Positions 39,560-44,939 of a DNA stretch of 64,000 nucleotides are shown here, piece by piece. Position 1 is the stretch's first letter; every line of letters begins with the position of its first letter. The position numbers and the translations under genes were made by a program. Under the pieces are notes generated by a model, which was not told the DNA's origin, searched no databases, and was given only the letters and a program-made list of their open reading frames with translations. The stretch lies in the NCBI GenBank assembly GCA_000002445.1, contig CH464491.1:4544001-4608000 (forward strand), given 5' to 3'. The DNA comes from Trypanosoma brucei (lineage: Eukaryota).

Positions 39560-40030
39560 TTTGTCGCTGATTTTTTTCCAGAAAAACAAGAAGGTAAAAA
39601 AATGGCGAGGTTATGGAGGATTGAAATTTCTAGCGACCATTTTTAGGGTTAAATTTCGGTTTTTTTGACAATTTTTGGTTTTCGATTTTTCGAGTGACTT
39701 TTGAATTTTTAAGGTTGAGGTTTTTAGGATTATTGGAGTTAAGGTTTTTTTGTTAGACATTTTTGAGATTTATAAATTTTTTTTGGCATTTTTCACATTT
39801 TTTAAAGTTTTTGGAGTTGGATTAATTTTATAAAAAAATTGGGGTTTTAAACTCTTTTATGCGTTTTATATTATTTTTCGTAACTTCAGATTTACACTGA
39901 ACCAGGCAGCAGTTGTGCTAAAACCAAAAACAAAAGAAAGGAAGGATAGATAGGGTTATGGCTATAGTTAGGGTAAGAGTTAGGGTTATTCGGATAGATG
40001 TTTTAATTCTCCTTTTTTGGATTTTTTTTA
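39560..40030 (+). repeat. T/G-rich degenerate tract containing telomere-like TTAGGG-derived units
   Basis: tttagggttaaatttcggttttttt...ttaaggttgaggtttttaggattattggagttaaggttttttt and ...gatagggttatggctatagttagggtaagagttagggttattcgg. Confidence 0.5.
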
Positions 40031-40379
40031 ATTTGTCATTTTTTCTTAGTGATGCAGCGGCTCTTTCTGTATGTCACCTCTAGGCCTTTTTCACTCAACA
40101 CGCATCTTCTTCTTCATATTTTTTACATATTTATTTCATATCCACATCGTTACGATCTACTTCTAACACTTTTTTTGAATTTGAGCTCTGCATTTTTCTC
40201 TGCGCGCGGCCTCAAAAAAAAATTTTTATGCTGGCGCGTGGCAGTTTTGCCTCACAAAACGATTTGCTTTCAAAGAAGAAATAATATAAAAAGAGACCTA
40301 TTTGGAAGTAGGAGATTATCATGATCAGTGGTGAAGCATCATCAGCCCGATCTACCGCTGGCAGGCGACGTCTAATGCC

Positions 40380-40700
40380 GCTCAACTGTCAGTGGCGCGT
40401 TTTTAACCCCAAAGGAAAAGACGACAAAGAGTGCACATTGATTGAGGAAACCAAACAAAAAGCAGCAGAGCAAGCAAATTGAGAAATACGAGGGAAAGAT
40501 GGCAAACCTGACTGCAGCAAACTTCTAACACAACTGGAATATGAGGCAGTAAACAAGGATAACAAAAATTATTGTGTATAGAGAAGTGGGAAAGATAACA
40601 AGGATGAAAAAGACACAAAAATTCTGTGATTCCAGTTTTCTCGTCAATAAGAAAATTTCTCTGATGGCTGCTTCTGTTTTAAGTTTGGTAGTATTAAAAG
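40380..40700 (+). pseudogene. VSG: Solo VSG C-terminal fragment (C-domain and GPI signal only)
   Basis: ...KDEKDTKILCDSSFLVNKKISLMAASVLSLVVLKDF is preceded by a Cys/Lys-rich stretch. No N-domain lies upstream. Confidence 0.75.
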
Positions 40701-40789
40701 ATTTTTCGCTTAGTTTTATTAAATACTTCATTTTTGAGAGAATCTACAAAAATTTGAAACAATCTGATATATTTTAATTATTTTTTTAT

Positions 40790-40935
40790 AGTTAGAGTTA
40801 TATAATAATTATGATATTAATAGAAGTGCACTGTAAGTGTATATATACTAATACTATAATAATAATAATAGGATAGTGTTGTGAGTGTGTTTATAATAAT
40901 GTTATGATAAGAGTTGTGGTGAAGAATGAATTTAA
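40790..40935 (+). repeat. 70-bp-type repeat
   Basis: atactataataataataataggatagtgttgtgagtgtgtttataataatgttatgataagag. Confidence 0.8.
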
Positions 40936-42256
40936 TGACAAAAAATGGAAGCACTGAAAACAATGTTATGTGTGCAATTGCAGTAATTGAGTAAGTGTGA
41001 TAGAAAGAGCTTTTATATGTGTAGGTTTAAGCACATATGTAAATATGGGTATCATTATACAAGAAGGTGATGGTTATTGATAGGAAGTGGAGGCAGAATG
41101 CGGTGTATAGGCCACATGGAATCGATACATTGTCTGTAGAAGAGAAATTACACAAAAAAGAATAAACGAAAGTATGGAATAAAATAACCTAAGAGAAAAT
41201 AGCACAGTATGAAAGGAAATTATACCGAAAATAAATATGCTCCGTATTTCATGTGGAAATAGATATAATCCACTGCGAAGATAGTGCTTTGGAAAGTGGT
41301 TGTTAATGTGATGACGAATCCTATTTTTTATAATGTGAAGAAATACAAAAAAGAGAAACTGATAGGAGGAGCGGATTGAGAAACTGTGAAGCAATTTAGA
41401 AGTATTCTCATCAAATGTAGCAATAATGACAGATATGTGCTGGATATGATATAACATTGTCTTGAAAAGGATTTTAGAACTGGAAATACAAATGAGTTAT
41501 CGCGGATAACAAAATAGACAAAACGCCGAAGTTTCTTAGAATAGAACGTGTGTCAAGCTATGAATTATCTCTATGAAGCGAAGAGAAATAATGACGATAT
41601 TCTTCCAATCTTGTATTGGTATATTTACCAGTCATTAATAATTTTCAAGGATCAAGTAAACCATATAAAAGTGGTTGCCGACACAAAGTGAACGGCGCGT
41701 GTTTACAAATCAAAAAAGTGGAAGAAGGCGGTTTTGTGTCCACTGTTTTCAAGTCTTCAGCGACAGTGTCCGATTACAAACAAGGATGTAAGGCAGTAAC
41801 ACACTGCAAACCTTTTCGTGATAAACAACAATGCTTCCTAGTTATTACGCAGATATTCAATGTAGAATTGAAAGAAAATAGAACCAATAACAAAACATGA
41901 GATTTGAATTCCCATGCATAGAAATATGTCTGACGTTCATCCATGAACCTCAAGGATGCATCAGAACAAACATCATAGATGTAAGCCAAAATAAACACGC
42001 GAAGTGTGAGCAGGAAGAGCATTCGTAGTGAGTATGTCATTCAGCTACAACCTTAAAGGTTACAACAACACAGAACGTAAATAGGAGAAGCGTGATGCAT
42101 CAAAAACAGCCACAACAGTTTAATGCAATTACTGAAACAAACACAAATGAAGCATAACCCAACTCACCATTGCAACACCCACCAGCAGCGTGACGAACGA
42201 CTGCCACACAGCTCTAAACAGCACTTGCACGTCCTACATACTTTTCAGCACGCCGT

Positions 42257-43793
42257 ATGAAATTCAGCCCTGTGATACACATAAATCCCTTAATTTTAGT
42301 CAATGTAGCTAGAGAAACGGACGATGTTCAAGCCGACAGCAGCGGTGACGCTAACTCTTGTTTTTATCTGTATCGAACAGCATGCAGATGCCCAAGCACA
42401 GAAACTTTGATTAGCGCTGTCACCACACCGTTTCATGAACTGCAGTATCTAAAAAAGTTAATAGGCCACTTCGAAGGACAATTACAAGCAGCGAGCAACA
42501 ACCTCAAAGATCTGGCGGCGGACTTCACCCAACTGACAATCAGCCATGCGTGCTCAACGTCAACTTCAACGAAACAAGCGGTGGGAGCTTTTCTCGTGGC
42601 AAGATCTGAAGCAATGCACTAACAAGAAGCGATTATTCAAGCTGGTAGAGGCCCAGTAACGAAATTGTTAAGCGCACTCAAAGACAAGAGGATGCAAACA
42701 CGAACACTAATAAGGTCTGCACTAGACAAACTAACTCTAAGCGGCGGATCAAACCCGAAAAGCAGCTAGGCCGGCCTAAGCAGGGCCAGCGACGTCCAAT
42801 GCGACGTACAAGACACAGGCGATGGAAAAGACAGTAACACTTGCGACACCGAAGTCACAGCCGGAGCACACAAAGAAGCCACAGCGATAATAGAACTGCC
42901 CAACATCGAAAACATACAGCTTATCCCCGATGCCAAATTCAACCCACCGAGCTACAAGCTCAAAATAGCTTCGGCAGTGCGGGCTCAATGAGCACAAGGA
43001 AACCAGGAGCCTGCGCGATAACCCCGACATATGACAACACACCGCTCGGGCAACTAACAAAAGCGTTCGGAGTAGTGTCAGCGACGCGTGACACGAGCAA
43101 TGACCGGCCGACCAAAACAACCTTATTTAAGCCAGCTGGCAAAAATGCTGGCTGCGAAGATGACAACACAGACGAAAAAAAACCTAACAACGACTAAAAG
43201 ATTAGCAGCCCTGCTTTGCCGGCACCGACACATCAACATAAAGACAGTCGCCCGACCTCTTCAAAAGAGAAAAAATGACCTATAAAGTGACGCGACATTA
43301 CGAAAAATAGCCCAGCTATTCAAACACCGACAAGCCAATAGTTCCGAAGAGGAAAGCAAGCAAACCTCAGCTGTCAAGGCTTTGCTGCCCAACGGCGAAG
43401 CAACCTTAACTTCAGATCTAAAACCGTTGGAAAACGAGCACATCAGTTACAAAGCAGACAACGGTATAGCAAAGATAAACTTAAAGGAAGCCAACAGCGC
43501 CGGCGAAATTGCGAAAACTCTTGATTTTTGTTTCGCAAAAGAACACGCCGCCAAAGTAGCGGAAAGAGCACAAAAGACAAACCCAGATACTAAAACAGAA
43601 GAAAAATACAAGGAAAACACAGAAGAAAAAAATGCAAAGAGGACAAAGATTGTGAGCTCAAAGATAGTAAATGCAAACTTAAAGAGGGTGTAAAAGCTGA
43701 AAATGATGGGAAAACTACAAACACCACAGGAAGTAATTCTTTTATCATTAAAAAGGTCCCTGTTTTGCTTGTATTTTTGATTATAGTATAACA
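42257..43793 (+). pseudogene. VSG: VSG pseudogene, heavily fragmented
   Basis: The ORFs are 42257..42622, 42841..43197 and 43382..43693. The end reads ...CELKDSKCKLKEGVKAENDGKTTNTTGSNSFIIKKVPVLLVFLIIV*. Confidence 0.8.
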
Positions 43794-44439
43794 CATTTAA
43801 GAAATTTGCTCAATTTTTATGAAATATTCTAACGTTTACCAATATCTGACACACTTTAGCACCTTTAAATTCCCCGTAAATTGTGTGCTTTTGTTAAATT
43901 TTGAGTGTGTACAATTTTTTGTTGCTTAAAATTTTCTCTTTTTTCTTTTGTTTTCTTTTGTTTTCTGTTGATTTTTTTTGAATTTTTTGGGTTAGTTTTT
44001 TTGGTATGTTCGATGTAGTAAAACAGACAAAAAACCTAAAGGCAAGCTAGAAAATGTTAGCGGTAGTGTCATTCGGGTTGTGGTTACGATTTGTAATTTT
44101 TGTTTTAATTTTTTAATGATGCAGCTGCTCTTTCTCGATGAATACTCTAACTATTTTTCCTCCAGCAGACATCTTTGCTTAAATTCTCTTGATATTCATT
44201 TTTACTACGCCGCCGTTACGCTTTTGTTCATTTTGATTTTGTGAATCTCAGTTCTGCACTTTCCGCTGCTCGCGGTTTCAAATTCTTTTTTCGTTGGGAC
44301 AAAAGCTGGAGGGTGGCCTCAGCGGCTGCATGCGGTTTTTTTACAGTGGCGTGTGGCAGTTTCGCTGCAACAATCTGTCTGCTTTTAAGGCGGGGTAGAA
44401 GCAAGCGAACGATATTCTGCAGCAACACATGAGGCTAAT

Positions 44440-44810
44440 TTGGCAGAAAACTTTAGCGACGCGTGCAGACAGCAAGCGTTACACAACAAACGTGACCTGC
44501 AAAGCAAACGACTGCAAATGGGAAGGGGACAGCGAAACCACTGCAAACCCAATGATGGAGAAACGCAGACAATTCAAGGAACAGATGGAACTCTATCAAC
44601 AGAAGACCCTAATTGTAGCGAGTATACAGACCCAGATAAATGTGCCAACGCGCCACGCAAAGCTAAGGAGTGAAAGAAATCTGTTTGTGATTGGATTGAT
44701 TTCATGGATGGACAGGAAAATTTTTGAACCAAAATTCCGTGATTGAAGTTTCCTTGCAAGTAGAAAATTGGCTCCGATGTCTGCTTCTTTTCTGCGTTTG
44801 GTGTCATTTT
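44440..44810 (+). pseudogene. VSG: Solo VSG C-terminal fragment
   Basis: ...VTCKANDCKWEGDSETTANP...EYTDPDKCANAPRKAKE* is followed by the frames ...KKSVCDWIDFMDGQ... and ...LKFPCK*KIGSDVCFFSAFGV, a remnant of the GPI region. Confidence 0.7.
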
Positions 44811-44939
44811 AAAGATTTTTACTCAATTTAATCAAATTTATTAAGTTTATGAAATTTTCTATTTTGAAAAAATTTGCTAGGATTAGCTAACAATTGATAT
44901 ATTTAAATACTTTTCGATAAAATATGAAAATTTAGAAAA

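Follow-up and report, generated by a model that had tools for sequence, protein, structure and literature searches.

Fragments in the archive of trypanosome genes for variant surface glycoproteins (VSGs) are reportedly mostly C-terminal (Marcello & Barry 2007), and most C-terminal domains (CTDs) in that archive are said to be damaged. Here we describe two such fragments, each part of a composite unit directly behind a full-length VSG, in a 64-kb stretch of Trypanosoma brucei contig CH464491.1 (positions 4,544,001 to 4,608,000, forward strand; hereafter the window). Gene fragments amount to 18% of approximately 800 archive VSGs in the figures of Berriman et al. 2005 as quoted in PMC5814966. In expression sites, 200-1590 nt lie between the VSG and the telomere repeats, and the extra VSG pseudogenes found there have been proposed to be errors of copying one cassette into another (PMC2567434). 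A conserved organisation 3' to telomeric VSGs, with TTAGGG-like repeats, is credited to Aline & Stuart 1989 where that study is cited in PMC3708902. In 3' donation, the CTD of a previously expressed telomeric VSG is retained (Hall et al. 2013, PMC3708902); such donation was seen in 57% of expressed sequences, and its donors were mainly telomere-proximal or previously expressed VSGs (PMC3708902).

The window belongs to a subtelomeric VSG array of the T. brucei group, as indicated by its Pfam domains and its near-identity to a contig of Trypanosoma equiperdum OVI. Unit 1 is the addition behind VSG1 (37977-39423), unit 2 that behind VSG2 (42257-43793), and all of their features lie on the plus strand. 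The same order runs through both: a T/G-rich, C-poor 3' flank leads to a homologous segment of about 280-310 bp, which is followed by an orphan VSG CTD fragment and then by a 16-mer with a 70-bp repeat after it. An initial annotation, made from the letters of the DNA, had proposed that paralogous add-ons of this architecture follow the two VSGs, and the proposal was borne out in both places, far beyond chance (z 28.5). Outside the homologous segment, colinear blastn matches between the units comprise 39232-39561 against 43589-43944 (65%; the short-type CTD, 3' untranslated region (3'UTR) and about 85 bp past the 16-mer) and 40615-40944 against 44728-45096 (64%; the CTD tail, 3'UTR and 70-bp repeat). 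We read each unit as the non-coding remnant of a truncated VSG cassette, a scar of recombination, and not as a maintained spare 3' end, and give this reading as a whole about an even chance of being right. It joins two parts: that the units are non-functional recombination relics seems to us probable, and that their special flank is of telomere-proximal origin is a tentative attribution, suggested by its sequence, on which we would not yet rely.

The homologous segment carries the paralogy most clearly. Copy 1 (40020-40296), which is pyrimidine-rich and starts TGATGCAGCGGCTCTTTCT, and copy 2 (44085-44395), which starts ATGATGCAGCTGCTCTTTCT, were delimited by blastn, alignment (MAFFT for copy 1), nhmmer and shuffle tests. 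They align in a first block of 67.2% identity over 195 bp with 5 gaps (40025-40216 against 44090-44282; blastn E 1e-19) and a second of 72.5% over 51 bp (40223-40273 against 44338-44388), parted by an insertion of about 49 bp in copy 2 (around 44283-44331). An estimate of roughly 70% identity over about 300 bp had been given beforehand and agrees with these values; the GC-rich motifs quoted with it are present in the alignment of the copies, and it is such short GC-rich blocks that are best conserved. The starting string described as shared needs a correction, in that the common core TGATGCAGC(G/T)GCTCTTTCT exists but unit 1 reads GTGATGCAGCGG, beginning GTGATG and not ATGATG. The local alignment score of the segment was 59, compared with 12.4 +/- 1.6 for dinucleotide shuffles (z = 28.5), and the similarity of the core, checked by pairwise alignment, is not limited to low-complexity T-rich sequence. 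Homology stops at about 40290 and 44395, and the next 90-130 bp are unrelated (shuffle z -0.6). These junction stretches lie at 40297-40384 in unit 1, where alignment to a full VSG is ambiguous and the sequence may be either filler or degraded VSG hinge sequence, and at 44396-44469 in unit 2, where a shuffle test likewise found no homology to the other unit.

Only these two copies were found in the 64-kb window, by blastn with the low-complexity filter off and by a two-sequence nhmmer profile. Some 13 other cassettes in the window lack the segment, in agreement with the claim that it is absent after the other 70-bp repeats, and the same two programs, run on T. equiperdum contig L002 and on the additional 8 kb of contig L003, detected no more copies. 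By blastn the segment does not significantly resemble the window's ingi-type element (3.8-9 kb), nor does it match the ordinary spacers, co-transposed regions or 70-bp repeats found there. Internal tandem repeats within the window copies were not significant (z 1.1-1.3). A metagenome scan with the 18-mer GATGCAGCKGCTCTTTCT returned 113 hits, 26 of which the segment profile fitted at E <= 1, always over about 65 bp around the seed; we dismissed these as chance.

The pieces that follow the segment are VSG C-terminal domains, as had been claimed. Orphan fragment 1 (40385-40705) is of a two-subdomain type (...FCDSSFLVNKKISLMAASVLSLVVL) and orphan fragment 2 (44470-44810) of a ...CKANDCKWEG...VCDWIDFMDG... 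type; both were recognised by tblastn, six-frame views, blastn (for fragment 1, to other CTDs) and Pfam. Once corrected for frame, they match PF10659 (Trypan_glycop_C) with 43.4 bits over profile positions 16-104 and with 33.1 bits over positions 9-79, respectively, both above the curated cutoff of 21.4 bits. Both are pseudogenic: the reading frame of fragment 1 is broken by no fewer than 2 in-frame stops along with 1 frameshift, that of fragment 2 by 4 stops and 1 frameshift, and neither keeps an uninterrupted frame through the glycosylphosphatidylinositol (GPI) signal. The stretches 39424-40800 and 43794-45019 contain neither N-terminal-domain (N-domain) homology nor a 70-bp repeat, and the units indeed lack, as first described, an N-domain and an upstream 70-bp repeat of their own.

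Downstream, each orphan fragment runs into the 3' end of an array cassette, and the reported succession of 16-mer and 70-bp repeat holds in both units. The 3'UTR of fragment 1 (40706-40801) contains the 16-mer-like TGATATATTTTAATTA at 40765 (3 mismatches in a 16-mer scan), followed by only about 35 bp of ordinary spacer (a GTTAGAGTTA box) and then by the 70-bp repeats that open the next cassette (40802-40913; blastn with a 70-bp consensus). In unit 2 the fragment's 3'UTR, with a 16-mer-like motif at 44895 (2 mismatches), and a full ordinary spacer extend over 44811-45019, before the 70-bp repeat of the next cassette at 45020-45065 (found in the same way). A hidden Markov model (HMM) of the ordinary spacer matches unit 2 only after the orphan's 16-mer (44895-45017, E 8e-9). 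For this profile, the sequence from the 16-mer to the next 70-bp repeat was aligned for 13 ordinary cassettes. The spacer is well conserved, about 200 bp long, and has two TTAGGG-like boxes (...gtatgatagtggcctatgg..tagTAGGGTgATAGGGt...ttgtttatttta..attaGTTAGGGTTAtaat); instances in the window include 35259-35470, 51198-51395, 54244-54465 and 62430-62625 and, on the minus strand, 25575-25756 and 15440-15628. In about 9 of 14 cassettes GTTAGG(GTTA) stands right against the 70-bp repeat, and array cassettes in general may carry telomere-derived sequence at their 3' ends.

The full-length VSGs in front of the units end differently. Both are indeed full length, as first noted, but both are pseudogenes. 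VSG1, identified from the list of open reading frames (ORFs) and its frame translation, has a single in-frame stop (39045-39047) and a CTD of the short 'SNSYVINKAPLLLLFLLL' type, and its 356-aa ORF has an exact annotated counterpart in T. equiperdum OVI. VSG2, with a CTD of the same short type (...NTTGSNSFIIKKVPVLLVFLIIV), is heavily degraded, its frame translation showing many stops and frameshifts. The 3'UTR of VSG1 (39424-39475) has a near-perfect 16-mer, GGATATATTTTAACAC, at 39460 (1 mismatch); that of VSG2 (43794-43865) has a degenerate one, read from the sequence, which the 16-mer scan did not match at <=3 mismatches. After these 16-mers the ordinary spacer is absent by spacer HMM and alignment, and on the special flank of unit 1 the model matched the 16-mer alone. 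Since the ordinary spacer follows the 16-mer of the orphan and not that of VSG1 or VSG2, the normal 3' end of a cassette belongs to the orphan, and an abnormal flank to the full-length VSG.

In unit 1 the special flank (39476-40019), recognised by composition, occupies the place of ordinary spacer and 70-bp repeat; that of unit 2 spans 43866-44084 (composition, telomere-repeat alignment and shuffle test). A T/G-rich tract of about 400 bp had been ascribed to each unit, which is near the mark for unit 1, with a T/G-rich, C-poor tract of about 460 bp (39560-40020; T 42%, C 9%), but not for unit 2, where the T/G-rich, C-poor tract measures about 190 bp (43900-44090; T 48%, C 9%). Just past the VSG 16-mers the flanks are homologous at a borderline level (39480-39561 against 43866-43944; z 4.8, with 1 of 200 shuffles scoring higher, 32 against 31), and the T/G tracts themselves align to each other weakly and ambiguously. 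Phased T-tracts of the kind expected of bent DNA were sought in the T/G tract, and the periodicity was not above that of shuffles. A (TTTTCTTTTG)5 microsatellite at 43932-43989, within the T-rich flank of unit 2, has no counterpart in unit 1. The window's best alignment to (TTAGGG)n on either strand is a degenerate telomere-like island in the flank of unit 1, TAGGGTTATGGCTATAGTTAGGGTAAGAGTTAGGGTTA (39951-39988), with a score of 26; the next best scores are 14, at 39601-39750 and 44001-44091, and the window median is 5. The flank of unit 2 has a weak TTAGGG-like stretch (44055-44091), and where the segment ends, no telomere repeats persist.

Six VSGs of the window share a short single-subdomain CTD ending ...NTTGSNSF(V/I)I.K.P.LL.FLL: 37977-39423 (VSG1), 42257-43793 (VSG2), 741-939 and, on the minus strand, 13100-13298, 15714-15844 and 25770-25901. 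The CTD and 3'UTR of VSG2 are homologous to those of VSG1 and of the four others, and VSG1 and VSG2, the two with add-on units, are the only ones of the six without an ordinary spacer. We considered whether the special flank comes with this CTD type and rejected the idea: the four other VSGs align through CTD and 3'UTR only, and the three of them whose downstream region was displayed have ordinary spacers. When the two short-type CTDs were aligned and used as query in a protein homology search, no match came back.

Neither a protein-coding nor an RNA-structural signal was found in the segment. The small MMQ(R/L)LFL ORF (40049-40324), put forward for a conservation check, did not withstand it: its frame is not conserved, being broken between the copies by 1-nt indels and the 49-bp indel, the frame in unit 2 stops at 44244, and 'MMQR' in unit 1 requires a bacterial GTG start. 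Among 5.8 billion proteins no homologue turned up even at E <= 10, Pfam gave no match and no called gene on record corresponds to it exactly; we therefore reject it as a gene. A search of Rfam gave one chance-level match outside the segment (E 0.097; 19.5 bits, where the gathering score is 40), and the folding energies of the copies relative to shuffles (z +0.39 and -0.58) hold no structure signal. On the VSG-sense (plus) strand the segment is pyrimidine-rich (T+C 72% at 40002-40202), which may recall trypanosome RNA-processing regions, a resemblance of composition that proves nothing. Elsewhere in the window, co-transposed regions are 57-62% identical and regions of CTD plus 3'UTR 65-75%, and generic cassette flanks taken together span 59-75%; the 67% identity of the segment is within this generic range for cassette parts and thus gives no sign of special constraint.

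In blastn blocks the OVI contig and the window are 99.4-99.9% identical, and over 35450-44223 (8.8 kb) the two differ by two substitutions and an N-gap. Being near-identical, it confirms the existence of both units in an independent assembly but offers no evolutionary contrast. The two substitutions are adjacent (TC to GT, window 40623-40624) and fall within orphan fragment 1. The gap is an N10 scaffold gap inside the segment of unit 2 (OVI L001 16236-16400, corresponding to about 44105-44260 of the window). Beyond the gap, the OVI sequence opens with one more, diverged copy of the 5' half of the segment (ctagcgatgcagcggctgttttt...) and then rejoins the window sequence. Aligned to unit 2, this copy shows 47% identity in its first 55 columns and 85% in the 60 that follow; a comparison of the variant with the 3' part of the unit 2 segment gave z 3.3, with a top shuffle score above that observed. 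Either the 5' half of the segment is tandemly repeated at this site or one of the assemblies is wrong; a true tandem repeat would hint at a repeat family.

How such units might arise can be sketched as follows. A resident array cassette would have been stripped of 70-bp repeat, co-transposed region and N-terminal domain, leaving only its CTD, 3'UTR, ordinary spacer and the 70-bp repeat of the next cassette. Upstream of it there would now stand a full-length VSG whose 3' flank, 0.55-0.8 kb long and unlike that of the array, is T/G-rich and C-poor, bears TTAGGG-like motifs and ends in the 280-310 bp segment; such a join would be expected if a VSG copied along with its own downstream flank had landed inside another cassette without replacing it. 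To our knowledge, the only class of VSG 3' flank that differs from the array type and bears TTAGGG-like repeats is the telomere-proximal one, which makes it the likeliest class of donor. In both units, furthermore, the VSG-derived sequence that the segment abuts sets in no more than about 15 codons into the CTD profile (PF10659 positions 9-16). As the same breakpoint thus recurs in the flank and near the CTD start in two adjacent cassettes, a single event followed by duplication into the neighbouring cassette would be the more economical course. That the N-domains are unrelated and the CTD sub-types differ would then be put down to gene conversion and a later divergence of about 33%, and the orphan CTDs would be by-products decaying as pseudogenes.

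Several observations weigh against this account. The N-domains of VSG1 and VSG2 are unrelated, and the co-transposed regions of the pair are 59% identical, compared with 57-62% to other cassettes. The orphan CTDs, of different sub-types, are not each other's closest relatives by tblastn or blastn and resemble one another no more than any two CTDs do. A single origin consequently needs later conversions, and tandem duplication of a whole cassette was rejected as a sufficient account, the co-transposed regions being no closer to each other than to those of other cassettes. The argument from telomeric motifs is weakened as well: ordinary spacers reach (TTAGGG)n scores of 12 and bear GTTAGGGTTA boxes, TTAGGG-like islands occur in most of them and are not specific to the units, and only the island of unit 1 clearly exceeds them. 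The array sequence examined amounts to about 85 kb of essentially one genome.

Were the same class of VSG 3' flank joined on two independent occasions to different resident VSGs, the differing sub-types of the orphan CTDs, the unrelated N-domains and the absence of any special relation between the co-transposed regions would follow readily; conversion boundaries are also known within the CTD-coding region (PMC3708902). Such a course, which we regard as unlikely, would have the boundary of N-domain and CTD as a preferred breakpoint and the segment end as the natural end of the donor flank, for example the start of the telomere repeats. One event followed by a local duplication would more simply place the same breakpoints on either side of the junction in neighbouring cassettes, and no telomere repeats remain at the segment end. 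One may ask instead whether the resemblance is an artefact of low-complexity T-rich sequence. The weak and ambiguous alignment of the T/G tracts, and the one shuffle that beat the proximal flank (32 against 31), could be taken in this sense, and for most of the T/G tract the explanation may hold. For the core segment it is refuted by the z of 28.5 against dinucleotide shuffles, conserved blocks that contain GC, a blastn E of 1e-19 with the low-complexity filter off and a tally of only two copies in 64 kb, and as an explanation of the similarity at large we find it barely credible.

Two further explanations would grant the units a function. In the initial annotation they were a conserved module of usable spare 3' ends, with segment and orphan CTD kept by selection as a donor for 3' segmental conversion that would rescue VSGs with damaged CTDs. 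The damage that Marcello & Barry 2007 reportedly found in most archive CTDs would suit this purpose, as would the ordered architecture occurring twice and the near-complete coverage of the CTD by both fragments, from Pfam profile positions 9-16 on. The frequency of 3' donation (57% of expressed sequences; PMC3708902) is in its favour too. However, each fragment is pseudogenic, broken by 2-4 stops and one frameshift, and the two, of unlike CTD sub-type, are no closer to each other than to other CTDs; the segment has no coding or structural signal and an identity (67%) at the generic level of flanks, and the 3' donors that have been identified are for the most part telomere-proximal VSGs or ones expressed earlier (PMC3708902). 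In view of the broken CTDs, the differing sub-types and the generic identity, the claim of a maintained module is not supported, and we consider it very unlikely. Alternatively, the segment could itself be a functional non-coding element, such as a polypyrimidine tract or splice acceptor, an element that marks a boundary or termination, or an adaptor for recombination; the CTD fragment beside it would then be incidental. Its strong pyrimidine bias on the plus strand (T+C 72% at 40002-40202, as in trypanosome RNA-processing regions) and the short GC-rich blocks as its best-conserved parts may be cited for this, and the extra diverged 5'-half copy in OVI hints at a multi-copy family. Yet about 85 kb of array hold two copies only, Rfam and folding gave no match and no signal, and conservation is no higher than in neutral-looking flanks; this possibility, judged from sequence features, strikes us as highly improbable. 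We retain the reading of the units as scars. A bolder version of it, that special flank and segment form a genome-wide recurrent marker of telomere-proximal VSGs internalised into arrays, or of chromosome ends that captured array sequence beginning within a VSG's CTD, appears quite doubtful to us.

Other features of the window complete the picture of the array. Pfam finds VSG N-domains of A- and B-type; those at 10-27 kb are on the minus strand, those from 30 kb onward on the plus strand. An ingi-type non-LTR (long terminal repeat) retroelement with endonuclease, reverse transcriptase, RNase H and zinc-finger domains (Pfam; 3.9-8.9 kb) lies directly after a VSG 3' end (3535-3705), near the switch of VSG orientation from plus to minus; the region holding both spans about 3535-9000. 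Of the element's ORFs, 3875-5023 has the endonuclease, 5465-6829 the reverse transcriptase, and 7089-8912 RNase H together with C2H2 fingers. A long (TAA)21 / (TGA)6 tract at 31574-31805 comes with 70-bp repeat matches in both orientations. With the minus-strand repeat at 28.6 kb (28608-28676), the VSG at 29939-31484 is flanked by opposed 70-bp repeats in a strand-switch region. A 218-aa ORF (60022-60678), with a weak galactosyltransferase-like match to PF01762 (E 1.9e-4, under the cutoff), is probably a fragment of a glycosyltransferase pseudogene; it stands just upstream of the intact VSG at 60836-62347, which is, like the 356-aa ORF of VSG1, an annotated protein of T. equiperdum OVI.

At present the units are one locus with two decaying copies, and they leave the picture of antigenic variation unchanged. 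For annotation, the orphan fragments should not be taken as independent cassettes, nor the small ORF as a gene. If scars of this kind recur genome-wide, they would offer a direct view of how VSG arrays are built and reshuffled, could indicate traffic from telomere to array and preferred breakpoints at the boundary of N-domain and CTD, and would account for a fifth of archive entries being C-terminal fragments. If the flank and segment did prove to be a marker, they would be a fossil record of the growth of the silent VSG archive, and the segment a previously undescribed conserved part of trypanosome chromosome-end or VSG-flank architecture.

Among described systems, the archive's VSG fragments are the nearest. 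The orphan CTDs are likewise degenerate, sit in a subtelomeric array without an N-domain and match PF10659, but here two fragments share a specific upstream non-coding flank and segment of 0.55-0.8 kb, and each stands directly behind a full-length VSG with no 70-bp repeat between them. We found no description of this positional pattern and shared flank in the accessible literature. The flank may be likened to the telomeric kind credited to Aline & Stuart 1989 in being G-strand-oriented, T/G-rich and C-poor, with degenerate TTAGGG after the VSG 3'UTR, and its 0.55-0.8 kb falls within the 200-1590 nt that separate VSG and telomere repeats in expression sites (PMC2567434); TTAGGG-like boxes are, however, also present in ordinary array spacers, and the units are array-internal with no true telomere tract behind them. 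With the pseudogenes of expression sites the units have in common a partial resident VSG beside an incoming one, for which imprecise cassette conversion was proposed (PMC2567434). Those pseudogenes, however, are telomeric and sandwiched by 70-bp repeats, whereas the units lie in a silent array and keep a CTD-only residue with no 70-bp repeat upstream. In 3' donation, too, recombination boundaries fall in the CTD-coding region and the CTD is exchangeable, but the CTD kept there is that of a previously expressed telomeric VSG (PMC3708902), and the array CTDs of the units are both broken. It is most economical to regard the units as objects of a known kind, VSG gene fragments left as scars of recombination.

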